A stretch of 64,000 nt of DNA, from NCBI GenBank assembly GCA_020635455.1, contig JACJZT010000003.1:266143-330142 (forward strand), given 5' to 3'. This DNA comes from Flavobacteriales bacterium. Its GTDB lineage: Bacteria; Bacteroidota; Bacteroidia; NS11-12g; UBA9320. Of this stretch, positions 26,681 to 41,710 are shown one piece after another (the first letter of the stretch is position 1; each line of letters opens with the position of its first letter). The notes under the pieces were generated by a model. It saw only the letters and a list, made by a program, of their open reading frames with translations. It was not told the DNA's origin and searched no databases. The translations under genes were made by a program, and so were the position numbers.

Positions 26681-29431
26681 ATGGTGTATTTTAACCTAGA
26701 ATGCACCGGCTTTTGGGAAGGCACTTTAGCAAAAGTGTATGGTACCTATGACCAGTTGAATCGATTGATCAGTGCAGATGTATATACTAATAGCACACTA
26801 TCTTCTAACTCGTGGAATTCATCCGGTTCGGCAGATAGCAGATGGGCGGAGCATTTTTCATACGATGCAAATGGAAACATTACAAGCCTCACCAGAAATG
26901 GAAATAAGGCCGATACATTAGCAATGGATGATCTGGACTACTACTACACGACTAATACAAACCGCCTGGCATATGTTGAAGATGCTGTAGCGGATATTAA
27001 TTACTCAAACGATATTGATAATCAGTCAAGTGGTAATTACGAGTATGATGCCATTGGAAATTTAATTAAAGATGTAAAGGAAGAAATCTATGATATCAAC
27101 TGGACCGTTTATGGAAAAATTAGCTCAATTATCAGAACCAGTGAAAGTGACAAATCAGACTTAAGTTTTTCTTATACGCCTGACGGACATAGATCCATAA
27201 AATCAGTCACACAGGATAGTTCCTTTGGTACATCACGCAGTGTATATATTCATGATGCTCAGGGAAATATTATGGCGGTCTATGCGCTTCCGATTGTAAA
27301 GGTACTGGATACCACGCAACTTGATTTTGAAATAATCAATAATGAATTGCTCAACCATATTACCCTGGAAGAGTTTGGGGATTTTATTATTGATGACATG
27401 GATATGGTTTCATTACTTTCTGCTCAGGGATATTATGATCCAACCGGAAATTATCGTACAGCCATTTATACAGCAAGTTCAGCATTAGAAGAAGCCCTTC
27501 TTTTGATTCTGGACCCGGCTCCTTATTTTAGTGCAAATTCAGGGTTAATCCAGACTGTATTTACAAATAACTATACCAATTTAGAAGTACTTCAAGTCCT
27601 ACTTGAAGGTAATTCCCTATCAAGTATATTATCGAGTGTAATAACAAATGAAATTTCAAACTCTGCATTTCATTCTCATTTAATGGCAACGCATGGGAAT
27701 ACATGGCTATCAGCACTATATACGCAGGATAATGGAGCATTTCAGACCTTTTATATAAACGCAATGGGAATGTACGGGCCTCCGGGTCTTTCTGGTCAAA
27801 CATATTCGTTTATGGAAAATGAACTTACCAATGTGCTTACCCCCGTTCAACTTCATGCAGCCATGGCAGCCTTATTATCAGACTCCTATGTCTATAATGC
27901 TTATGACAACAATTTTACCACTGTTGACAAAAATCAGTTGCTTTCCAACTATACAGGATTTAAATCGGCAGTGTATACAATTTACAGTGAAAGTGATCTG
28001 GTATCCTGGGCAGCTTCTTACGACTTAGAAGAGCTATGGACCGAAACGCTTAATGAAGAAACGTTAAGCGATATTCTTGACTGGTACGAAGCAAACCAAA
28101 GTGATGCCTTTTTAAAGAAATGCATTATTATTTACTCTGATTATGTTAATACTATGCTTACCAATGCAGCCGTTAATTTATATGATTACATGTCTGACAT
28201 TAAATCTTACTTAGGACAAACCGTGTTTGATAATTTATGTGGCGCATTAGAAGAAACCTATTTTATTCCTGCAACCGAATTAAGTATAAGTGAATGGCAT
28301 ATGTATGGCAGCAGTCGGCTTGGAATTTATCAAGCAGATAAAAAACTGGCCATTTATTATGAGAGCACCCTAACAACAATGGAATACCAGTCACGGGTGA
28401 ATTTCCGGGTTGTTGGTAAACGCAGATTTGAGCTTTCAAATCATTTAGGAAATGTGCTTGCAACTGTAAGTGATAAACGAATTGCCTATTGCTCTGAAGA
28501 GCAAACTACAATCACATATCACGCTGAGGTAATTACTGCAACTGATTACCATTCCTATGGAAGTATAATGGAAGGACGTCAATGGTCAAGTGGGACCTAT
28601 CGTTTTGGGTTCAATGGGAAGGAAAATGATGTGGAATCAGGAACTCAGGACTATGGGATGCGGATATACGATCCTAGGCTGTGCAGGTTTTTGAGTGTTG
28701 ATCCAATTAGTTTAGAGTATCCATGGAATAGTCCTTATCACTTTGCAGGGAACACACCAATTTGCGCTAGTGACTTAGATGGATTAGAACCTAATATTGA
28801 AACAATTGGGCTAGGTGCCTTGGCAGCAGGTTTTAAAGTTTATACACAGCGACAAGTATTACGCAGTAGCAAGAAATTTCAGAGTTTGTCTGATGAAGAG
28901 AAGGATAAGGTAATTAGTGTATTGAGAAACTCAGCTCAAGGTGTTTTGTTAAATCTATCGGATGAAGGTGTTTCAACGCTAGGATTTGGAATGATTAACT
29001 GGTCAAGTATTAAAAAAGGTCAAATAGCAATTTCAATCACTTTAGGAATTACTACAGGTCTTATACAAGGTCATTTTTCGGCTAAAGCCTTTTCACGGAA
29101 ATACGATGTTATAGTTAATGATAATAACTATAAAAAGAACGAAGCATTAATAAAAGAATATTATTCACTTTTAGATGAAAAAAGATTTGCAGAAAGTGCA
29201 TTAAAGGAGTCTGAAGAAAAGCAACAAAATTACTCAGCAGATAGTGAAGAAGGTAGAGAAGTTCAAAAACAAAAAGCAAAAGCTGAAACAGATTTAGCTA
29301 AAGTTGATTCTAATCTTAATGAAAAAAAGAGCGAATTTGAAAAAGCTAGTAAAGAAAATTCTAAAGCACTTTTAGGTACCGTAAAAATTTTTAAAAGTAT
29401 TAAATCCATTAAGAAAAAACTTGCTAAATGA
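26681..29431 (+). CDS. Rhs/YD-repeat polymorphic toxin protein with RHS repeat-associated core and a variable C-terminal toxin domain
   Basis: 916 aa. N-terminal YD repeats (FSYDANGNITSL, YEYDAIGNLIKD). The core reads RVVGKRRFELSNHLGNVLATVSDKR...DYHSYGSIMEGRQW...YRFGFNGKENDVESGTQDYGMRIYDPRLCRFLSVDP...DLDGLE. A unique C-terminal domain follows. The ORF begins 9 nt after the acyl-CoA dehydrogenase stop. Confidence 0.8.
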   Translation: MVYFNLECTGFWEGTLAKVYGTYDQLNRLISADVYTNSTLSSNSWNSSGSADSRWAEHFSYDANGNITSLTRNGNKADTLAMDDLDYYYTTNTNRLAYVEDAVADINYSNDIDNQSSGNYEYDAIGNLIKDVKEEIYDINWTVYGKISSIIRTSESDKSDLSFSYTPDGHRSIKSVTQDSSFGTSRSVYIHDAQGNIMAVYALPIVKVLDTTQLDFEIINNELLNHITLEEFGDFIIDDMDMVSLLSAQGYYDPTGNYRTAIYTASSALEEALLLILDPAPYFSANSGLIQTVFTNNYTNLEVLQVLLEGNSLSSILSSVITNEISNSAFHSHLMATHGNTWLSALYTQDNGAFQTFYINAMGMYGPPGLSGQTYSFMENELTNVLTPVQLHAAMAALLSDSYVYNAYDNNFTTVDKNQLLSNYTGFKSAVYTIYSESDLVSWAASYDLEELWTETLNEETLSDILDWYEANQSDAFLKKCIIIYSDYVNTMLTNAAVNLYDYMSDIKSYLGQTVFDNLCGALEETYFIPATELSISEWHMYGSSRLGIYQADKKLAIYYESTLTTMEYQSRVNFRVVGKRRFELSNHLGNVLATVSDKRIAYCSEEQTTITYHAEVITATDYHSYGSIMEGRQWSSGTYRFGFNGKENDVESGTQDYGMRIYDPRLCRFLSVDPISLEYPWNSPYHFAGNTPICASDLDGLEPNIETIGLGALAAGFKVYTQRQVLRSSKKFQSLSDEEKDKVISVLRNSAQGVLLNLSDEGVSTLGFGMINWSSIKKGQIAISITLGITTGLIQGHFSAKAFSRKYDVIVNDNNYKKNEALIKEYYSLLDEKRFAESALKESEEKQQNYSADSEEGREVQKQKAKAETDLAKVDSNLNEKKSEFEKASKENSKALLGTVKIFKSIKSIKKKLAK

Positions 29432-30103: not shown

Positions 30104-30329
30104 ATTAATCAGACAACCCAACTTTTTGTGAAGGCAGAAAGACGAATATTCCGACTAAACTGAGCCACTAATTCCGGAACAAGGTGAGCCACCCATTTTG
30201 GAATAAATTAGCAGTCTTTTTCAATCCAATTTCCTAAATTTGAGTGTCACTTCTTAAATAGATCAAAGTGCACCTTTCGGTTAGAAATAATAATTCAACA
30301 TATTACCCTTCCTATGGAAGTGTAATGGA
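30104..30329 (+). repeat. Conserved orphan-cassette leader element, copy 1. An inverted copy lies at 39127-39344.
   Basis: About 225 bp from CAACCCAACTTTTTG to CCTATGGAAGTGTAATGG, roughly 85-90% identical to the reverse complement of 39127-39344. It contains tandem half-sites TGAGCCACTAATTCCGGAA (30161-30179) and TGAGCCACCCATTTTGGAA (30185-30203). A -7 box TAaaTTTG lies at 30235-30242. Confidence 0.7.
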
Positions 30330-31278
30330 AGGACGTTCATGGACAGGTGGGGCGTATAGATATGGGTTCAATGGAAAGGAAAATGATGATGAAATTAAGG
30401 GAAATGGAAACCAACAGGATTATGGAATGCGGATATACGATCCTAGGCTGTGCAGATTTTTAAGTGTTGACCCAGTTTCTAATTATTTTCCTTGGTACAC
30501 ACCTTACCTATTTGCAGGAAACAAACCAATTTGGGCTACAGACCTTGATGGGCTTGAGGAAGATTTTACAAATGCTCAACCCTTTGAATATTATAATGAT
30601 AAACTAGCTCTAGATATGAATGGTGCACCTTCTTATTCGCCCAAAAATGCAGCTGGTTTTGCTAGAAATGGCAATTGGTACTTTAAACAATTATTAGAGA
30701 AAATGCCATATTTATTTGACGAAGTGAATATAGATTTAATAAGAAATGGATTGGCTCCTGAAGTAAATGAAACTTGGATAAAATATGTTCCAGAGCACAC
30801 TGGGTTTGTAGGTGATAAATTAGTTCATCATCATATCGACCAACAGAATATGGCTACAGCGCTTCCTGAAAAAGTTCACAAAGAATATAGTAATGTGCTG
30901 CATACAAGGTATAAAGCTGGAAGATCAGCTGCAGGAAAATTAGGAAAACTTTATAATTTTTTAGGTGCTATTTTAATGTTTAGAGATCTTTTCAGTAAAG
31001 ATCCTCACTCTACTTTATCTCAATGGCAAGTGCAGTTAGGTTTTTGTAAAGAAGGTAAAATGTACTATTCTGAAAAGGATGATAGCTATTTTATTGCTGT
31101 GAGTATTGAAAAAACATATAATGCTGATGGGAACGAAGATGGTATGTTTATAACCTATGATAGATATGAGTCATATTATTATAATAAGGAAAGTAAGACC
31201 TACGAAGGATTTGATAAAATAGGAACATACACAGAATATTATTCCAATGAGACGGGTAAAAGTGAAGAAATAAAGTAG
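30268..31278 (+). CDS. Orphan Rhs C-terminal toxin cassette; putative HNH/EndoVII-fold nuclease toxin with HHH signature
   Basis: GTG start. (M)HLSVRNNNSTYYPSYGSVMEGRSW...YRYGFNGKENDDE...QDYGMRIYDPRLCRFLSVDP...DLDGLEE. The variable domain then contains KLVHHHIDQQNMATALPEKVHKEY, a His-His-His...N...H pattern. Confidence 0.7.
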   Translation: MHLSVRNNNSTYYPSYGSVMEGRSWTGGAYRYGFNGKENDDEIKGNGNQQDYGMRIYDPRLCRFLSVDPVSNYFPWYTPYLFAGNKPIWATDLDGLEEDFTNAQPFEYYNDKLALDMNGAPSYSPKNAAGFARNGNWYFKQLLEKMPYLFDEVNIDLIRNGLAPEVNETWIKYVPEHTGFVGDKLVHHHIDQQNMATALPEKVHKEYSNVLHTRYKAGRSAAGKLGKLYNFLGAILMFRDLFSKDPHSTLSQWQVQLGFCKEGKMYYSEKDDSYFIAVSIEKTYNADGNEDGMFITYDRYESYYYNKESKTYEGFDKIGTYTEYYSNETGKSEEIK

Positions 31279-31284
31279 TAAATC

Positions 31285-31815
31285 ATGACAGGATTAAATT
31301 TTATAACTGAGTATCTAAAACAAAAACCGGATTATCATCTAATGCAGTTATCAGGCATCCCAACAAAAAATATTCAAAGATACTTAAATGCTTTCAAAAT
31401 AGAGAGTAAAGACACCGTAGATATTTCCAATAATAATACACAGATAGAATTCCTTTATACAAGATATAATATGGCTAATATAGAAATTCGATCTTTTTGC
31501 TTTTTAGATAATTTAAAATATTCCGATAACTTTTGTATATTTGGTCGTTTTGATACAGAAAGGGTTGCTTGCAATTTAAATACAAACGAAATTGTCATGC
31601 TAGATGAGAATTCAAACTACATTATGTGTGGTTGTGCCCCTAATGAAAATCTTTTTTTTGATGCCTTAATTAGCTGTGCAGAGTATTCTAAGAAATTAAA
31701 AGAAAATAGTAACAATACAATAGAAGCGCCAAACGAAAGAGTGGACAAGATTGTTAAATTGGTTGGAGATAAATATAGAGATTTTTATTGTGTCCTACTC
31801 GGTTGTTATAGCTAA
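31285..31815 (+). CDS. Candidate cytoplasmic immunity protein for the preceding nuclease-type toxin
   Basis: 176 aa with no signal peptide. It starts 7 nt after the toxin stop. Confidence 0.5.
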   Translation: MTGLNFITEYLKQKPDYHLMQLSGIPTKNIQRYLNAFKIESKDTVDISNNNTQIEFLYTRYNMANIEIRSFCFLDNLKYSDNFCIFGRFDTERVACNLNTNEIVMLDENSNYIMCGCAPNENLFFDALISCAEYSKKLKENSNNTIEAPNERVDKIVKLVGDKYRDFYCVLLGCYS

Positions 31816-31849
31816 TTCAACTTTATTCTATTTCTAATATCATAATTAT

Positions 31850-32920
31850 GTGACCACTCCCGATAACTTAAGATTCTACTTTCCTATTAAATCCAAACCA
31901 ACGCCAATCCAATCTAGCAATGCTGTATACTGTACCCGCCATTACACTCCCTATGGAAGTGTAATGGAAGGAAGAAGTTGGAGTATTGAAAGTGCTGGTG
32001 GATATAGGTTTGGGTTTAACGGTAAAGAAGACGATGATGAAAAGCAAACACAGGATTATGGTTTTAGAACATACTATCCAAGATTAGGTCGTTTCTTATC
32101 TGTTGACCCACTTACAAAAGAATATCCATATTTAACACCTTATCAATTTGCGAGTAACTCTCCCATATCAGGAATTGATTTGGATGGTTTAGAATATTAT
32201 TATGCTGCTGATGGGAAATTTTTAGGACAGGGAGGTGACCCTGATAATAAAGAGGTTCGATTGGGTAAAATAACAGGTAAAACAAAATCGGGAAAAAATA
32301 TTATTACAGCAGTTGATTTGAAAGGTCAAGCACCAAGTAAGTGGACGGTAATACACAATAATCACGATGACTTTAAAGCAATGGCAGGTGTTTTATATGC
32401 AGAAGCAGACGGAACGACATCAGAGGCTGTGGATGAAGTTGCAGGTATTTATTCTGTACTTGAAAATCGAGCAAAATATGAGGGGACAACTGTTAAAGAG
32501 CAAATGACAACTGCGAAAGGAGTTTATGGTGCAAGCGAAGCTGACAAAATAAACCAAGCTGATAAAGCTGGAATGACTGCGAAGAAAGAAGCTGTATTCT
32601 CTGGGTTGATTAAAGGTATATTATCAGAAACAGACTTTTCAAATGGTGCATTCTATTGGGATGGTAAAGATTTTGAGAAAGGCGGGGGGCATAATGAACG
32701 TTATAAGCCAGGTTTCCAATTTACTGATAAGAGCCATGATTTATTTAATCAGGGAGATAATAAAAAATCTGGAACAGCCAACGGAGTAACATGGGATTAT
32801 AAGTATCAATCAACTGGCGCAAAAGGGAAAACAACTTTTTCCAAACTAACGGATAAGTGGAGAGATGCCCAATACCCTGGTGCAGGTAAAGGTAAACAAG
32901 TAGGTAAAGGGAAAGAGTAA
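31850..32920 (+). CDS. Orphan Rhs C-terminal toxin cassette with SleB/CwlJ-like cell-wall hydrolase (Hydrolase_2) toxin domain
   Basis: GTG start. ...HYTPYGSVMEGRSW...YRFGFNGKEDDDE...RLGRFLSVDP...DLDGLEYYY. The toxin region MAGVLYAEADGTTSEAVDEVAGIYSVLENRAKYEGTTVKEQ...NGAFYWDG matches the SleB-type pattern LYAEARGE...VA.VVLNR...NGALYF. Confidence 0.65.
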   Translation: MTTPDNLRFYFPIKSKPTPIQSSNAVYCTRHYTPYGSVMEGRSWSIESAGGYRFGFNGKEDDDEKQTQDYGFRTYYPRLGRFLSVDPLTKEYPYLTPYQFASNSPISGIDLDGLEYYYAADGKFLGQGGDPDNKEVRLGKITGKTKSGKNIITAVDLKGQAPSKWTVIHNNHDDFKAMAGVLYAEADGTTSEAVDEVAGIYSVLENRAKYEGTTVKEQMTTAKGVYGASEADKINQADKAGMTAKKEAVFSGLIKGILSETDFSNGAFYWDGKDFEKGGGHNERYKPGFQFTDKSHDLFNQGDNKKSGTANGVTWDYKYQSTGAKGKTTFSKLTDKWRDAQYPGAGKGKQVGKGKE

Positions 32921-32924
32921 TAAC

Positions 32925-33506
32925 ATGAAAAATTTATTTAGTTTAATTTTTGTTGGACTGTTTGCTTGTTGCACATCAAATGTGAATAAAGAGGTTGTCT
33001 CTACAATAAGCAATTTGACACCCGTTTCTCGAAACAACAAGGTAGCTGAAGTTCCTTGCAAAGAAGATTCATTAGTGAAAATACTTCTAAATAATGGGAT
33101 AAAAGCTGTTAAGGGCGGAGAGTTAATATCTGAACCCGATATTAAGTATACTTCGGGTTATTCTGATGATTTTTCATTTACTCATTATCAATTTTCTTAC
33201 AATGAAAACTCTATTGAGTTTGTTGACACGGTATATGAAAAAAGTAAAGTCGATAAACGAAACTTGTATTTAAACAACAAGCCTTTGAATGTTTGTTGTA
33301 TTAAGAATAACACATTTGATTTAGATTCAATGGAAGTGCATATTGATTATACAGAGTCTGAAATTTATACATTTAAAAATAATCCGTTCTATTTATTGGT
33401 TGTATCGCACCCTATGAATTGGGTGGGAACGATGACTAGATTTTCTTTTTTTCAATTGATTAACTCAAAAGAAAATACAGTAGTTGAATTTATTAGAGAT
33501 GCCTAG
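32925..33506 (+). CDS. Candidate periplasmic lipoprotein immunity protein for the cell-wall hydrolase toxin
   Basis: Signal and lipobox MKNLFSLIFVGLFACCTSN. It starts 5 nt after the toxin stop. Confidence 0.5.
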   Translation: MKNLFSLIFVGLFACCTSNVNKEVVSTISNLTPVSRNNKVAEVPCKEDSLVKILLNNGIKAVKGGELISEPDIKYTSGYSDDFSFTHYQFSYNENSIEFVDTVYEKSKVDKRNLYLNNKPLNVCCIKNNTFDLDSMEVHIDYTESEIYTFKNNPFYLLVVSHPMNWVGTMTRFSFFQLINSKENTVVEFIRDA

Positions 33507-33655
33507 AAAAACCTAAATATTTTTAGTCTTCTGTCAGATCAAGTCGCGACTATTACATTTTAAGTTATCTGTAATACTCCCTTAGGATAACTTTGCTAAT
33601 ACTGCTCACAAAGCATGAACTTGGTAACTCCAACCAGGTTGAGGGATTGTTCTAT

Positions 33656-33882
33656 TTAGGGGAACATGCCGTACAGCTCCTTATGCGAGGGTTTTTCTGA
33701 GGCCGGTGGTAAAACAATGGAATAGAGTTCTTTATCGGTTAATTGAAGCAGTTCCTTGTAGGACAAAGGGTGTACGTCAAAAATGGACTTGTACTTGTCG
33801 ATGGAGTTTCTTGATATGGAAGTGAGACGACTGATCTGACGACCCGACTTTGTAATTTGTACCGATATTTATATTGGCTATC
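33656..33882 (-). pseudogene. IS21-family (IstA-like) transposase N-terminal fragment with no start codon
   Basis: Minus-strand frame reads ITKSGRQISRLTSISRNSIDKYKSIFDVHPLSYKELLQLTDKELYSIVLPPASEKPSHKELYGMFP*. This is an IstA-type HTH N-terminus, with no ATG upstream and a stop after about 75 aa. Confidence 0.35.
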
Positions 33883-33923
33883 TTTGTCTTTTATAATAAA
33901 AATAAACCTATTTAAAGCCATAT

Positions 33924-34247
33924 ATGATTTTCAGACAGCACAAAGCAGCCTTTCGTAAACTCAAAGGGATTTCCCAGGGCAATCTATGTAAATCGGTTAG
34001 AACTTTAGGAGATATTATCGGCAAGTATGAACGTAATGAGGTAAAACCCCCCATAGTGGTTGCTTCTAAAATTGCCTATATACTTGAAGTAAGTCTTGAT
34101 TATCTGCTCGGTATGATTTCCCTTGAACTGGATAAAAAAACTCTCAAACTCTTACATGACATAAAAAAACTCCTTGAAACCGATAAATATAATATTTCCT
34201 ATACCATTGACGGGCTGATTAAGGCGGCGAAGATTAATGCACTCTAA
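33924..34247 (+). CDS. XRE-family (Cro/C1-type HTH) transcriptional regulator
   Basis: LKGISQGNLCKSVRTLGDIIGKYERNEVKPPIVVASKIAYILEVSLDYLLG is a typical HTH_XRE helix-turn-helix. Confidence 0.55.
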   Translation: MIFRQHKAAFRKLKGISQGNLCKSVRTLGDIIGKYERNEVKPPIVVASKIAYILEVSLDYLLGMISLELDKKTLKLLHDIKKLLETDKYNISYTIDGLIKAAKINAL

Positions 34248-34289
34248 AACACAAGTGCCTAGCGGCAATATCCCCCAATATATAATCAG

Positions 34290-34673
34290 ATGGAATCCAT
34301 TATTAAAATTTGGCCTTATATTAAAATTGTTCTCGAAGCCATATTCTTAATTTGTTGTTTAATCCTTCCATTCTTGCTTATTTCACTAGCATTGAAAAAA
34401 AAGAAATTAGTTATATGTATAGATCAAATTGAAAAAAAAGAAACAATTGAATATACCAAAGATATTAATTTAGCGTTTGATCCACTTTTTGTATTTAATC
34501 TTTTTGCTGAACTACCAGAAATTAAAAAAGACCCGTCGCTTAATAAAAATAAGTTAGCCTTAGAGTTAGAAGAAAAAATAACTATTCTTACAAAAATTGT
34601 AAAACGTATTTCTGTAATACTCGGAACCACTTTATTACTTCTGCTTGTGTTAATTAATTGGCTTGAGAGTTGA
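34290..34673 (+). CDS. Small membrane protein of unknown function
   Basis: 127 aa with hydrophobic N- and C-terminal helices. Co-oriented with the XRE gene. Confidence 0.35.
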   Translation: MESIIKIWPYIKIVLEAIFLICCLILPFLLISLALKKKKLVICIDQIEKKETIEYTKDINLAFDPLFVFNLFAELPEIKKDPSLNKNKLALELEEKITILTKIVKRISVILGTTLLLLLVLINWLES

Positions 34674-35397
34674 TAAACCTTGTACTATTTGTAATTTCTT
34701 TAAATAGATCGTTGTACTTTACAAACTCTTCTCCTTTACCTCCTGCTATGCACGTAATTATGTAACAATTATGTCCGTTAAGTATGTAAGTAGTAATAAC
34801 GCCTAATTTTTTACCATCAGTTTTTACGTGATAAAATATCTCGTAAGCTTTATTTCCTGCGATTTTATATTCTCTTTCTCTTCTAAATTTTATTTCCTCA
34901 TAAGCACTTGCTAAATCCTCTTTATTAGCCATAATAAATCGGGGAAAATCAATACCCGAAGGCATTTCCTCTCGCAAAATATTAATAGTCGGAGCGAAAA
35001 TAGTATCACTTGACATAGGTTTAACGGCTAAGATAAGAGCTTGTTTATACTTTTTTTTAACTATCCATTTTGAAGGCAAATTAATGCTTACCTCATCGGA
35101 TAAAACTTCTAAAAAAATAAAATCTTCTTTATCAATATCGGTAATTTTTTCATTTCTATAAAAATAGACGACTGATACAAGATCTCCATTTTCGTGATAT
35201 TTTTTCCATATTCCATTTTTTCTTCCCCCAATAAGCATTCCCGTTTCTTTTATCTCACCTGAAGGGTACTTAGCACTATATAACCCACTTAATGTGTCTT
35301 TCATTGTTTCAACCTGTTGTGACTGATTGGTTTTATCTTTTTTATTATTACATGCTAAAAGAAAAGTGCAAGAAATTATAAAAATTGTCCTTCTCAT
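34654..35397 (-). CDS. Candidate lipoprotein immunity protein with MORN-like repeats (YwqK-type)
   Basis: Signal and lipobox MRRTIFIISCTFLLACN. Repeat YPSGEIKETGMLIGGRKNGIWKKYHENGDL. Its start overlaps the stop of the upstream toxin cassette (ATGA). Confidence 0.5.
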   Translation of the reverse strand: MRRTIFIISCTFLLACNNKKDKTNQSQQVETMKDTLSGLYSAKYPSGEIKETGMLIGGRKNGIWKKYHENGDLVSVVYFYRNEKITDIDKEDFIFLEVLSDEVSINLPSKWIVKKKYKQALILAVKPMSSDTIFAPTINILREEMPSGIDFPRFIMANKEDLASAYEEIKFRREREYKIAGNKAYEIFYHVKTDGKKLGVITTYILNGHNCYIITCIAGGKGEEFVKYNDLFKEITNSTRFINSQAN

Positions 35398-36320
35398 TTT
35401 TTACGTTTCTTAGGTTTATCGCGAACACCAAATGAAATTTCTCCTTCTATTCCGAGAATGAGGGCTAAACGTCCTTTAATTGAAAATCCTAAATCATGCT
35501 TCATTGCAACTAATTGCTGTTTTTTGACTTGGTATTTGACAATAACAGCATTAACAGTTAAAGAATGATTTTCATTTTTGTATCCCCCTCCCGTAACCGA
35601 ACCATCAAAACTATGTTCATACTCAGCACCACCATAATAACTTGCACCAGCATATTGGCTTATATGTGCATAACCATCTTCCCCAACATAATCAAAATCA
35701 AATGTTTTTGGTCCATAATCACTTTCTATTTGTTCATAATTCGCACTAGCTAAATCAATTGTCATCAAGCTACCTTCTAACCTTACCGCTAACCCTCCCG
35801 CTTCGAAATCAAAGCCAGCTTGAGCCCCAACATCCACTTTTCCATTGAAATTTGCATAGAGTTCTGTTTTGTCCCACCAATTGCGAAAAGAAGTTATGCC
35901 TTTAGAAAGACCATTTCCAATGTCTTCAAAAAAACCAGCAATCCTATTCCCTATATTATTTTTAAAAACCTTGGAACCGACTTCTAAATCTGCAATTGAG
36001 CCATCAGTATTTTTTCTTAAAGTATTTTTATCAACTGAATAATGTTTTCTCCCATTTTTATTTATCCATTCTTTAAGAATTCCGCCATTTGCTTTCTGGT
36101 ATGCTTCCGCTTTTCTTTTACTCCTTTCTTCCCCATTTAAACCCGAAGGATCTGCGAAAAAAATCGGATTCCCATGAAAGGTTGTATAGGGGCTTTCACA
36201 AGATTTAATTATCGGGTCAACATTCCATCTCCTTCCTAGCCTAGAATCATACTCCCAGAATTGAGCGGTTGTCGTATTTCCTTCACCATAAATTTCATCA
36301 TCCTTCTCCTGAGTGTTGAA

Positions 36321-37579
36321 CCATAAGTGTTCGAAACCTTGAACAACGGGTTGTTAATAGTTAGTAATATTGGTTTTCAGAAGTTTAAGGTTGGTTATTA
36401 GTTTGATATGTGAATGCGGACCAATTGCTAAAATTAATTCCTGAGGATGAATTAGAGTTCTTGAGTGTAACTACCGATGTAAATTATCAAACCAAAAAGC
36501 TCTATGGTTCTGTAATTTTCAAGTTGCTTTTATTTTCTATGCTCAACAGTTCCAAGGTTAGCTATCGTGTAATGGAAAAGATAGTGTTATCCTCCAGTTT
36601 TATAGCTTTTCTTGGGTTCAAAATCGAAACAAAATTTAATTCTATACGGGATAGAATATGCTGTATAAATGCTTCTTATTTTGAACAACTTTTCAATAAA
36701 ATATTTACCATTTATAATCAACAGCTCAAGGAAGAAAAAGCCTTGATAAAGGTTGACAGCACATATGTAGGAATTGCCTCCAAACTGGTAAAATGGGATA
36801 TGCATAATGGCAGGAAGAATACATCTAAAAAGCAAATTAAATATTCGGTAAGTGTTAAAGGCAGCCTTCCATGTGGCTTCAAAATTTTCACTGATAAAAA
36901 ATATATCAGCGAAGATTTGGCATTATCGGAAACCATTACTGAAAATATCCATATAGATGAATCTCTTGTCGTATTTGACCGTGGACTTAAATCCAGAAAA
37001 AAATTCGATGAATTAACCAATCAAAGCATACATTTTATAACAAGAATTGCGCCTAACACCTTTTTAAAAATAATTGAAAACAATAGACTATACCGGCCAA
37101 TTGAAACTCAAACATTAATTATAAATGAAGATTTAAAAGTAAAATTAAGAAATAGGAGTTCGAAAATTTCAGATAACAACTATAGGGTAATTAAGGCTAA
37201 AATGAAATCTTCTAATGAACCACTTATCTTTTTGACCAATGACTTTGATCTAAGTGCCGATGAAGTTACTACCTTATATAAACAAAGATGGGAAATAGAA
37301 TTATTTTTTAAATTTTTAAAGCAACACCTAAATCTCTCACATCTTGTATCTCGGAATGAAAATGCAATTAAAGTAATTCTTTATATGACCATGATATTGG
37401 CAATTTTAATTCTATCTTATAGAAAAATAAACAATATCAAAGGGTATAAAATGGCAAAACTGCAATTTGAAATTGAGTTGGACAATTCAATGATTAAAGA
37501 AATTGTGATCCTCTCTGGCGGAAACCCTGATAAAGTCTCATATCTTTGGAACACCTCCTAAGGTTTCGAACACTTATGG
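36321..37579 (+). mobile_element. IS4-family insertion sequence (1259 bp) with 19-bp terminal inverted repeats and a 7-bp target-site duplication
   Basis: Left inverted repeat CCATAAGTGTTCGAAACCT (36321-36339), right inverted repeat AGGTTTCGAACACTTATGG (37561-37579). Direct repeat TGTTGAA at 36314-36320 and 37580-37586. Confidence 0.8.
36410..37561 (+). CDS. DDE transposase, IS4 family
   Basis: 383 aa. The YREK signature YKQRWEIELFFKFLK matches the Y-(2)-R-(3)-E-(6)-K spacing. Confidence 0.8.
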   Translation: MNADQLLKLIPEDELEFLSVTTDVNYQTKKLYGSVIFKLLLFSMLNSSKVSYRVMEKIVLSSSFIAFLGFKIETKFNSIRDRICCINASYFEQLFNKIFTIYNQQLKEEKALIKVDSTYVGIASKLVKWDMHNGRKNTSKKQIKYSVSVKGSLPCGFKIFTDKKYISEDLALSETITENIHIDESLVVFDRGLKSRKKFDELTNQSIHFITRIAPNTFLKIIENNRLYRPIETQTLIINEDLKVKLRNRSSKISDNNYRVIKAKMKSSNEPLIFLTNDFDLSADEVTTLYKQRWEIELFFKFLKQHLNLSHLVSRNENAIKVILYMTMILAILILSYRKINNIKGYKMAKLQFEIELDNSMIKEIVILSGGNPDKVSYLWNTS

Positions 37580-37778
37580 TGTTGAACCCAAACCTATATC
37601 CACCAGCTCCTTCAGCTTTCCAACTTCTTCCTTCCATTACACTTCCATAGGAAGAGTAATGGAACAGAAGATATTTATATTTATTTTGAGTCAATATTTT
37701 GTTTTTGAACCTTTCTAAAAAGTAAGAAAATTAGAGCATAAAAATTTTGAGACTTTTATTAAAATAATACTTTGGTTA

Positions 37779-39392: not shown

Positions 39393-39887
39393 TCAATAAG
39401 AACTCAAAGTATCAATTTCAATTTCTTCATTAAAATTTACACCGAAATAAACTATGTCTTTTGAATAAATTTTCAAGAATTTGCTTGATAAAATCCGGTA
39501 GTATAAGCAGAATTTTTCATGCTTTTTTAGATACTCTAACCCAAATACATTGATCAAATCATCAATTGATAAGTTAATTTTTTGTGTTTCATTCCTTTTA
39601 AGTGCAATAGAATCATATAACAATTGATAATTCATCTTATAAGACTCTAAATTTCTTATATCATATAAAATTCTATGGTCGGCACTATCATTCTTGCCAT
39701 CCAAAAGTATGATGTAATGAAGGATACTATCCGAGACGTTAGTAATTTTTAGTTTTATGGTATCTTTCTTTAATTCATATGAAATATCTAAATATTTTTT
39801 TTCAATAGTTTTGGCAGAATTCAAGTTTTTACTAGAGTAATTACAACAAAGTAAAAGAAGACCGAAAACACAGATATTCACTTTCAT
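39393..39887 (-). CDS. Candidate periplasmic lipoprotein immunity protein for the Tlde1-like toxin
   Basis: Signal and lipobox MKVNICVFGLLLLCCNYSS. It starts 3 nt downstream of the toxin stop. Confidence 0.5.
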   Translation of the reverse strand: MKVNICVFGLLLLCCNYSSKNLNSAKTIEKKYLDISYELKKDTIKLKITNVSDSILHYIILLDGKNDSADHRILYDIRNLESYKMNYQLLYDSIALKRNETQKINLSIDDLINVFGLEYLKKHEKFCLYYRILSSKFLKIYSKDIVYFGVNFNEEIEIDTLSSY

Positions 39888-39889
39888 TG

Positions 39890-40960
39890 TTACCGTTGTT
39901 TTGTAAGATGATTGAATGTCGATGCATTTGGATTTGAGTATTTTACGATTACAAATATTCTTCCTTCATATGTGCTATTACGATATCTCCATAAATAGTA
40001 ATAAATGTCGTTAGAATTTGTTGTTTCAACGCAGCCATGTGTTTCTCCTTTACCAGAGTCATGGATGTAATGATTGTCTCTATTATATGAATTACCTGAA
40101 ATCCTATCTAATCTTGCTCTCCATACGCCCCATCCTGCATAATAATTTCCATGATCTGTATATTCAAGTCCACCTCCGGTACTAGGTACCAGATTGCCAG
40201 CTAGATCTTTTCCTGCAGACCTGCCATTCGGATCAGGTTTTAGGTTTATTGTATAGGTTCCTTCGGGTACTGGACCTCCGGGGTCATCATACCCATAACT
40301 TTTTTTACTTTGATCAGAAGCTTTTTGGTAATCAAATGAACCAGAGGTTGCAGGCCATGATTCAAGTATCAGATTATCCAAATTCAATCTATTTATATTT
40401 TGGCCATCATACATAAGATATTCTGGACTTTGATAATCTTTACCAGTTTTTGAATTCTTATATGCATTAAATGTACCATCTCCATTATAAAATGCCACAA
40501 ATCGATCTTGTCCTATATTAAACGAGCGCACAGATCCTTCAATTGTAGAAATTTTAACATTTGTGTTTAACGTGCTATTGGGTCCTCCAGTATTGTAATC
40601 GTTTATAATAGCATTTTTTGGAAGATATAAATTACCTCCCTCTCCTTTATGTTTGTTATAATTTTCTTCAGGCCCCCCTCCACCCAAATAATCAACTATG
40701 GCAATAGGAGAATTATTAAAATATGAGTAAGTGCTTTGCCAGGCATATTCACGTTCTCTAGGGTCTGTACTGAACCATCTACCTAACCTACTATCATAAA
40801 TTCTTAACTCATAGGCTACAAAATTACCTTCACCCTTAATTTCATCATCATTTTCCTTCCCATTAAATCCGAAACGGTATGCACCATCTGACCAACAACG
40901 TCCTTCCATTACACTTCCATAGGAATGGTAATCAAAATGAGTTCTATCTACGACGGTCAT
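39890..40960 (-). CDS. Orphan Rhs C-terminal toxin cassette with Tlde1/DUF2778-like (L,D-transpeptidase fold) toxin domain
   Basis: MTVVDRTHFDYHSYGSVMEGRCW...YRFGFNGKENDDE...RIYDSRLGRWFSTDP. The toxin region has WPATSG...GGPVPEGTYTI and HYIHDSGKGETHGCVE, which resemble the GPIPxGxY and H...HGC motifs of YkuD/Tlde1 domains. Confidence 0.6.
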   Translation of the reverse strand: MTVVDRTHFDYHSYGSVMEGRCWSDGAYRFGFNGKENDDEIKGEGNFVAYELRIYDSRLGRWFSTDPREREYAWQSTYSYFNNSPIAIVDYLGGGGPEENYNKHKGEGGNLYLPKNAIINDYNTGGPNSTLNTNVKISTIEGSVRSFNIGQDRFVAFYNGDGTFNAYKNSKTGKDYQSPEYLMYDGQNINRLNLDNLILESWPATSGSFDYQKASDQSKKSYGYDDPGGPVPEGTYTINLKPDPNGRSAGKDLAGNLVPSTGGGLEYTDHGNYYAGWGVWRARLDRISGNSYNRDNHYIHDSGKGETHGCVETTNSNDIYYYLWRYRNSTYEGRIFVIVKYSNPNASTFNHLTKQR

Positions 40961-41035: not shown

Positions 41036-41710
41036 ATGCAAAGAACAAACGACAAAATCCCAATCCTTATTTTGCTCGAAAAGTTTATTTACGATTCGGA
41101 GAAAGGAAAGAGGCTTCAAAAGAATGGAGCACTAATTTCAAGCTCAACCATTGATAATTACCATGCTTTGTTTTCAAATTTAAAAGGATTTTGCTCCAAG
41201 TCTCAAAATGAATGGTCCTTTAATGTAAAATACAGAGCTTCAAAAACCGGATTTAGTAAGGAAAAGAAGTATTACAAACGGTTCTATACACATTTCACCA
41301 ATTATTTGTACAGCAAAGGATGTACTGATAATTATGTTGGCATGCAAATAAAAATCCTACGTACTTTTTTTATTTACCAGATAACTACCCTAGGCTATGA
41401 AATGGGATTGTTTTACAGGGATTTTTACGTTAGAAGGGAAGAAATACCCATTATCGTACTTTCACAGGAGCAATTAAGGTTTCTGATAAGTAATGAAGAG
41501 TTCGAGAATTCTCTTTTAGCAAAAATGAAGATAATAAAGGACATCCTTGTGTTTGGATGTACCATCGGTTTAAGATTCTCAGATTTAATGTCATTAAAAG
41601 GTTCAAATCTCGTAGAACAAGATGGAGCAACTTATATTGTTAAAGTATCAAAAAAAACAAACAACGCTGTACTTAGTTTATCAATTAATTTATGTTTATT
41701 TTTTAAATAG
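41036..41710 (+). pseudogene. Truncated tyrosine recombinase/integrase: core-binding domain and first half of catalytic domain only
   Basis: 224 aa ending shortly after the catalytic-Arg region VFGCTIGLRFSDLMSLKGSNL. The HxxR and Tyr nucleophile regions are missing and the gene is followed by 378 bp of non-coding DNA. Confidence 0.55.

Follow-up and report, generated by a model that had tools for sequence, protein, structure and literature searches.

An orphan Rhs C-terminal cassette of a Flavobacteriales genome with a probable SleB/CwlJ-like cargo and a candidate lipoprotein immunity partner

Gene pair and its coding status

We analyzed a 64,000-nt stretch of a metagenome-assembled Flavobacteriales genome (assembly GCA_020635455.1, contig JACJZT010000003.1 of 586,724 bp, positions 266,143 to 330,142), hereafter the window, in whose coordinates all positions are given unless another locus is named. 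Two adjacent plus-strand genes at 31850-33506 are the subject of this report. We consider it likely that they form a toxin/immunity module of the type known as orphan Rhs C-terminal cassettes, with a cargo of a very divergent SleB/CwlJ fold that would cut peptidoglycan in the periplasm. The first open reading frame (ORF), 31850-32920, encodes 356 amino acids (aa) from a GTG start at 31850; the second, 32925-33506, begins 4 nt past the stop codon of the first and encodes a 193-aa protein, which the NCBI annotation lists as hypothetical protein H6605_03715. A preliminary description of the same DNA had named the first product an Rhs-delivered SleB/CwlJ-like cell-wall hydrolase toxin and the second its lipoprotein immunity partner. 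Both ORFs lie at the positions and on the strand that it gave, and the strings it quoted are all there, namely DLDGLEYYY (residues 110-118), AMAGVLYAEADGTTSEAVDEVAGIYSVLENRAKYEG and NGAFYWDG, as well as LFACCTSN in the downstream protein.

The N-terminal part of the 356-aa protein is an Rhs-associated core. Residues 32-114 (31943-32191) match TIGR03696 in the NCBIfam search with an E-value of 3.7e-16 and 59.4 bits (cut-off 32.5), and the same stretch also matches the ends of TcC/Rhs cocoons in a sequence search of the PDB. The core ends in a DPxGL-type motif, here DLDGL (residues 110-114, 32177-32191), which is the usual release point of Rhs cargos. The cargo that follows has 242 aa and comprises a beta-rich linker or pre-toxin subdomain of ~50 aa (residues 115-165, 32192-32344), which begins with EYYYAADGKFLGQ and contains strands only in the AlphaFold2 (AF2) model, and a putative catalytic toxin domain of ~175 aa (residues 166-340, 32345-32869), in which a divergent SleB/CwlJ-like fold is predicted together with a family-specific C-terminal beta extension. 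NCBIfam recognizes only the Rhs core in this ORF and leaves the cargo blank.

Both genes have close homologues, 36 for the cargo part and 26 for the downstream 193-aa protein, and a homologous cassette at metagenome locus L081 allowed the substitution rates to be compared. Over 309 codons the toxin cassette has a ratio of nonsynonymous to synonymous substitution rates (dN/dS) of 0.06, and that of the partner gene is 0.43. Judged by these homologues and ratios, the two ORFs are genuine genes and no products of chance, and the low ratio of the toxin gene, in which all family-invariant residues are intact, points to selection acting on the toxin coding sequence. When 31850-33506 is set against L081 9114-10659, amino-acid identity amounts to 90% for the toxin and 67% for the partner, with dS values of 0.92 and 0.43, respectively; this difference in dS may reflect separate histories of the two genes or recombination between them.

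Cargo domain family and its resemblance to SleB/CwlJ

The cargo domain belongs to a large family that neither Pfam nor NCBIfam annotates; a search of 1.84 billion library proteins at E<=1e-3 gave 476 cluster representatives. A 22-sequence alignment served to build the AF2 model of the cargo (predicted local distance difference test, pLDDT, 81.7; predicted template modeling score, pTM, 0.82), which consists of the beta-rich linker (cargo residues 1-55), a helical core and C-terminal beta hairpins. The linker (ORF residues 115-165) is modeled as a small beta subdomain with pLDDT values of 92-96, and the motif Y-x-x-D-G-x-x-L-G of this subdomain is also found in distant members of the family. In a Foldseek search of the PDB with the cargo model, the best three of 121 matches are the SleB catalytic domains 4fet_B, 4fet_A and 4f55; the match to 4fet_B has a probability of 0.80 and a template modeling (TM) score of 0.61 (target-normalized), and all later matches have probabilities of 0.07 or less. 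The corresponding search of BFVD gave a best match with E 0.015 and probability 0.99, and 15 of the best 19 matches carry a phage SleB or cell-wall hydrolase annotation; a 126-aa phage SleB has a TMt of 0.66. Structure prediction thus recovers the fold of the SleB catalytic domain, in agreement with the preliminary description.

Sequence profiles give mixed signals on this relationship. A profile of the broad family alignment A5, which holds 31 sequences filtered to <42% pairwise identity, retrieved two matches only from the PDB sequences, both non-significant, namely SleB 4f55 (E 1.3) and, with the better score, an arbitrium protein of 52 residues that is unrelated (E 0.36); the SleB match pairs the YAE...NR of the family with the YGES...NR of SleB. 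Profile-profile comparison by hhalign of a 146-sequence family alignment with an alignment of SleB and 120 CwlJ sequences gave a Prob of 65% and a P-value of 6e-5 over 86 columns, whereas nine control templates (one reversed and eight column-shuffled) reached a Prob of at most 0.3% with P-values of at least 0.21. The family and SleB/CwlJ correspond in four collinear motifs, Y-x-E, N-R, N-G..W-D and H-x-F.

The first of these motifs contains the candidate catalytic residue. Glu185 (in YAE, codon 32402-32404) is invariant in A5 and is paired with the Glu of the SleB YGES motif by both HMMER and hhalign; in the model it terminates helix 58-71 (cargo numbering), and N-R comes after it. The SleB Glu aligned to it is residue 120 of the 4fet chain as counted from the alignment, which we take to be the catalytic Glu151 on the assumption that the chain starts at precursor residue 32. 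A single essential Glu is the catalyst in SleB-type enzymes (PMC11148199, PMC12331253). Taking the fold searches, the profile-profile comparison and the alignment of the catalytic Glu together, an enzyme with a divergent SleB/CwlJ fold is the likeliest identity of the cargo.

Several results weigh against this assignment. PF07486, the Hydrolase_2 family to which the preliminary description had referred the cargo, is matched neither by the whole ORF nor, at E<=10, by the isolated cargo, and HMMER finds no match at E<=10 in any of 22 close homologues either. Searches of PDB sequences with the protein or with the close-family profile returned nothing for the cargo. Among 127 relatives, three have PF07486 matches that are collinear with most of the model, the best of them scoring 20 bits (E 0.0011; P0169, profile positions 10-75 of 100) against a gathering threshold of 27 bits; as no score reaches this threshold, the curated criterion places the protein outside Hydrolase_2. 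Comparison by hhalign with an alignment of 28 CwlJ sequences only gave a Prob of 3%, a value that is uninformative given the low effective number of sequences (Neff 1.6) in this template. In addition, the second invariant Glu, the WDGxD motif and the C-terminal beta extension of ~60 aa have no counterpart in SleB. The earlier claim of a SleB/CwlJ-like identity has the fold and the Glu alignment in its favor, receives a mixed answer from hhalign, and falls short at the PF07486 threshold.

A skeptical reading of the same data is that the SleB likeness is superficial; the cargo would then have a generic helical core and act in the periplasm as a toxin against something else, for example lipid II, the membrane or a lipoprotein. 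This reading would account for the lack of a match at any curated or conventional significance threshold and for the size of the family, which is ~60 residues larger than Hydrolase_2 domains. However, independent methods and libraries converge on one small family, the shuffled controls score far lower, and four collinear motifs correspond with SleB, so that we regard a superficial likeness as very unlikely.

The features that the family does not share with SleB suggest that its chemistry may differ. The family-specific invariant residues are Glu185, Glu196, W270, G272, D274 and F330. Glu196 (codon 32435-32437) is the second family-invariant Glu, and the position aligned to it is Gly/Gln or Met in SleB and CwlJ. 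Residues W270-D271-G272-K273-D274 (32657-32671) form the WDGxD motif, whose W, G and second D are invariant (A5 columns W105, G107 and D109). The lytic transglycosylase chemistry that the preliminary description assigned to the cargo is putative, and a variant of this proposal retains the fold and the periplasmic wall target but assumes a different chemistry, in which the cargo would be a hydrolytic muramidase, or cleave another bond, by means of two carboxylates (Glu185 together with Glu196 or Asp274). The invariance of both Glu residues and of the D of WDGxD in 31 sequences at <42% identity, together with the missing second Glu in SleB/CwlJ, would fit this variant; moreover, the specificity of CwlJ has never been demonstrated unequivocally (PMC12331253), and T6EC3, a SleB-like effector of Acinetobacter compared below, has an unusual phenotype (PMC11148199). 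On the other hand, the invariant acids may be structural or substrate-binding, and the characterized relatives of the same fold, SleB and, by mutagenesis, T6EC3, depend on the single aligned Glu; we hold the two-carboxylate mechanism to be unlikely. A broader and rather unlikely conjecture is that a cross-phylum family, carried by Rhs proteins and by PAAR- or VgrG-linked effectors, arose from the SleB/CwlJ fold, a single-Glu lytic transglycosylase scaffold, by gaining the beta extension and another catalytic carboxylate, either Glu196 or the D of WDGxD, with a changed chemistry or substrate specificity, and that this family might include T6EC3.

Partner proteins and carriers of the domain

The 193-aa protein encoded by the downstream gene 32925-33506 starts with a predicted signal peptide, MKNLFSLIFVGLFAC, followed by the cysteine of a lipobox, L12-F13-A14-C15 (Cys codon 32967-32969), and its hydrophobic core and CC are kept in 25 homologues. 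In its AF2 model (pLDDT 72.6) residues 1-42 are disordered and the remainder is beta-rich. Comparison of this model with the PDB gave no meaningful structural match (best E 0.18, unrelated folds), which does not favor the proposed function, and with no structural relative at hand we claim no relation of the partner to known lysozyme or transglycosylase inhibitors. The partner nevertheless accompanies the toxin in other genomes. A hidden Markov model of the partner family finds ORFs downstream of the toxin in loci L001, L009, L005 and L002 (E-values 2e-16 to 8e-5), and L081 has a 193-aa partner in the matching position downstream of its toxin homologue. Across 77 related loci, the ORF next to the toxin on its downstream side begins with a hydrophobic, signal-like N-terminus in 67, compared with 19.6% of 949 control ORFs judged by the same heuristic; 24 contain a lipobox-like motif, and many overlap the toxin stop codon by 4 nt. 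In other clades the partners come from unrelated families, which is to be expected of polymorphic toxin systems. The proposal that a lipobox protein encoded next to the toxin fits a periplasmic effector has thus gained ground from the conserved lipobox of the homologues and from the signal-like partners. At the level of sequence, these downstream signal-peptide proteins support a periplasmic action of the toxin, and we regard the 193-aa lipoprotein as its candidate cognate immunity protein.

The architecture of the carriers is that of C-terminal toxin domains. In 145 proteins the domain ends at a median distance of one residue from the C-terminus, while the N-terminal parts range from 0 to 1979 aa. 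An Rhs core lies upstream of the domain in 68 of the 97 members with an N-terminal part of at least 100 aa, at a median spacing of 50 aa; the full-length carriers include DUF6443+RHS-repeat proteins and one SpvB+RHS-repeat protein. A genome scan was seeded with the closer alignment A3, as the broad alignment was too divergent to serve as a seed, and relatives were confirmed in 123 of the matched stretches. Their hosts comprise Bacteroidota, Acidobacteriota, Myxococcota, many Betaproteobacteria, Pseudomonas and a metagenome-assembled genome of Trichodesmium.

Some of these relatives occur in type VI secretion system (T6SS) contexts. For instance, in Pseudomonas and Dechloromonas the toxin domain forms a stand-alone protein of ~200 aa encoded directly after hcp and vgrG. 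Linkage to hcp-vgrG was found in L072 (4601-9325) and L040 (5224-9247), linkage to PAAR in L061 (7360-9316); in a Burkholderia the toxin domain is likewise a stand-alone protein, and its start codon overlaps the stop codon of the PAAR gene that it follows. We also observed that the genes after these proteobacterial stand-alone toxins encode signal-peptide proteins from an unrelated family, many beginning …DGYxAYYA…. The statement of the preliminary description that cell-wall hydrolase domains of this type are not classical Rhs cargo was too strong in view of the 68 long members with an Rhs core, of the published SleB-like effector (PMC11148199) and of a YkuD/Tlde1-like cassette within the window itself (see below).

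Cassette array, proposed mode of action and known systems

The ORF 31850-32920 opens at 31838, its first possible start codon is the GTG at 31850, and its first ATG is codon 39. The late opening of the ORF and the positions of these codons define the cassette as an orphan, that is, a cassette devoid of a shell. Several negative results at the locus count against a toxin that is made and delivered from the module as it stands. There is no YD-repeat shell upstream in the same ORF, the preceding gene being the partner of the previous cassette, and the ORF has no ATG start before the Rhs core. Neither a full-length rhs gene nor any secretion-system gene, T6SS genes included, was identified among the scanned ORFs of the window. 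Upstream of the cassette, a sigma-70 scan, a terminator scan and a search for the Bacteroidetes -7 motif TAnnTTTG gave results at chance level and brought up no recognizable promoter. Of the expression "Rhs-delivered" used in the preliminary description, the Rhs core is therefore confirmed, and the delivery is deduced from a core fragment at a locus that has no shell.

The module 31850-33506 is one of a series. It is directly preceded on the plus strand by another orphan cassette, 30268-31278, composed of an Rhs core and a Tox-HNH-HHH nuclease domain (PF15637, E 2.1e-26), and by the partner gene of that cassette, called as an ORF at 31285-31815; the modules 30268-31815 and 31850-33506 show that the array is built of tandem toxin/immunity modules. 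The nearest upstream rhs gene, 26681-29431 on the plus strand, encodes a 916-aa protein with the TIGR03696 core at residues 623-702 and a C-terminal domain of its own. It begins 10 nt past an acyl-CoA dehydrogenase gene, its RHS_repeat match is marginal, and it has no DUF6443 domain; the closeness of its start to the acyl-CoA dehydrogenase gene and the marginal RHS_repeat match make it look N-terminally truncated. As this is the sole long rhs gene in the window, the array may have no functional carrier. A conserved DNA block of ~40 nt, which encodes Y-x-x-YGSVMEGR, is common to all five cassettes of the window and to a cassette remnant, and the rhs gene 26681-29431 carries the same core block. 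We consider this block a plausible recombination substrate and the rhs gene a possible recombination partner for the orphan cassettes.

Further elements of the array lie downstream, and its cassettes occur on both strands, with an insertion sequence (IS) element and an integrase-like fragment close by. The minus-strand cassette 39890-40960 joins an Rhs core to a YkuD/Tlde1-like L,D-transpeptidase domain (PF03734, E 4.9e-6; PF10908, E 4.8e-5) and is directly followed by a gene (39393-39887, minus strand) for a 164-aa protein with a lipobox-like N-terminus (MKVNICVFGLLLLCC); wall-directed Rhs cargo is thus nothing unusual here. A DDE_Tnp_1 transposase gene (36410-37561, plus strand) abuts a truncated cassette remnant (37494-37694, minus strand), whose core DNA (…GAGGYRFGFN) is closest to that of the SleB-like cassette. 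This similarity and the abutting transposase suggest that a related module was lost to an IS insertion. A weak Phage_int_SAM_5 match (41036-41710, plus strand) adjoins the minus-strand cassettes. In L081, too, the array terminates at a Phage_integrase gene (L081 10812-11858, minus strand), with the homologous cassette as its final module; tyrosine recombinases may be associated with such cassette arrays. Integrase-flanked arrays are reminiscent of the recombinase-associated orphan-immunity islands of Bacteroidales (rAID). We considered an rAID-like orphan-immunity island as an explanation of the locus and set it aside: integrase fragments do flank the arrays, but the toxin parts are complete and under purifying selection.

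A few observations concern the region between the immunity gene and the minus-strand modules. The region 33540-34250 downstream of the immunity gene comprises a non-coding part with a higher GC content and a small HTH_3-like ORF, 33924-34247, with a below-threshold match to PF01381 (E 3.6e-4), and the minus strand at 33560-33900 resembles a degraded HTH or transposase N-terminus. The minus-strand gene 34654-35397 encodes a lipoprotein with PsbP_2 and MORN-variant matches and overlaps an upstream, unannotated 147-aa ORF at 35394-35837. The minus-strand region 34654-35837 may represent another toxin-fragment/immunity pair that faces the array.

Under the interpretation that we favor, a toxin/immunity module with a peptidoglycan-cutting cargo of SleB/CwlJ fold, the cargo would acquire a full-length Rhs shell, probably when the conserved DNA that encodes the core recombines. 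The shell-borne cargo would be encapsulated and self-cleaved after DLDGL, and the released cargo would be exported, through a presumed route of Flavobacteriales, into a neighboring diderm cell. In the periplasm of the target it would act enzymatically on the glycan strands of peptidoglycan, with Glu185 as the putative general acid in the manner of the catalytic Glu of SleB, and the target cell would round and lyse. In the periplasm of the producer, the 193-aa lipoprotein, held by its lipid anchor and a flexible linker of ~25 residues, would bind the toxin and block it.

An alternative view of the locus is that the cassette is a silent reserve from which no toxin is made. The immunity gene would then be the working part of the module, protecting against neighbors that carry this toxin, and the toxin sequence would be kept for occasional recombination into a full rhs gene. 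The ORF that opens at 31838 without a shell, its first ATG at codon 39 and the lack of a convincing promoter would all be expected of such a reserve. So would the surroundings of the module, which stands among similar modules downstream of an rhs gene with a truncated N-terminus and next to an IS-disrupted remnant, and the homologous cassette of L081, which is likewise last in an array ending at an integrase gene. Conversely, the dN/dS of 0.06 over 309 codons, together with the intact state of all residues invariant in the family, argues for selection on the toxin coding sequence. We give a silent reserve serious weight, while leaning somewhat away from it; it is not exclusive of the mode of action proposed above, since that proposal deals with the function of the protein once it is produced.

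The organization of the array resembles that of the orphan rhs-CT/rhsI modules of Enterobacteriaceae, which lie downstream of main rhs genes. Common to both are tandem shell-less cassettes, the presence of the 3' end of the core, an immunity gene for each cassette and a DNA block shared with the upstream rhs gene. The array of the window differs in that its host is a member of Flavobacteriales, its "main" rhs gene is short, its cassettes occupy both strands, and it is accompanied by an IS element and an integrase-like fragment. As to its cargo and partner, the module would share with Tlde1/YkuD-type L,D-transpeptidase T6SS effectors and other peptidoglycan-directed effectors (Tae, Tge, Tse4) a periplasmic, wall-directed cargo and a secreted or lipoprotein immunity protein, whereas the fold and the bond differ. 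Wall-degrading cargos that are paired with a periplasmic immunity protein are a well-established concept, so that our finding fills a gap in the catalogue and changes no principle. It gives a name and a candidate active site (Glu185, Glu196 and WDGxD) to a toxin domain that is blank in Pfam and NCBIfam and that is present in hundreds of Rhs and T6SS effector clusters of Bacteroidota, Acidobacteriota, Myxococcota, Betaproteobacteria and Pseudomonas.

Among enzymes of the same predicted fold, SleB/CwlJ (PF07486; 4F55, 4FET) provide the best structural matches, the common Y-x-E...N-R at the end of the first helix and hhalign scores above those of the controls. The cargo domain differs from them by its extra Glu, WDGxD motif and beta extension and by the absence of a peptidoglycan-binding N-terminal domain. 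Furthermore, SleB is a spore enzyme held in check by YpeB, whereas the domain described here is a putative interbacterial toxin with an immunity partner. The natural toxin/immunity pairs of the family therefore offer material for studying how a spore-germination fold was recruited to interbacterial killing.

We found no description of an Rhs-borne SleB-like cargo in the literature; the nearest known system is T6EC3/T6IC3 of Acinetobacter rudis CIP 110305, a PAAR-fused T6SS effector with a SleB-like C-terminal domain and its immunity protein (Mol Syst Biol 2024, PMC11148199). T6EC3 has no Pfam match, is matched to SleB 4F55 by Foldseek, is toxic in the periplasm, gave an unusual double-membrane phenotype, and is inactive as the E108Q variant, and T6IC3 bears a signal peptide (PMC11148199). 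The two systems have in common an unannotated C-terminal toxin domain predicted to be SleB-like, a Glu aligned with the catalytic Glu of SleB and an exported partner, and the proteobacterial relatives of the domain from the window are likewise linked to PAAR or VgrG. They differ in that the carrier is PAAR in Acinetobacter and an Rhs core fragment with a lipoprotein partner in Bacteroidota. The single published SleB-like effector is extended by a family that includes Rhs carriers and candidate lipoprotein immunity partners.

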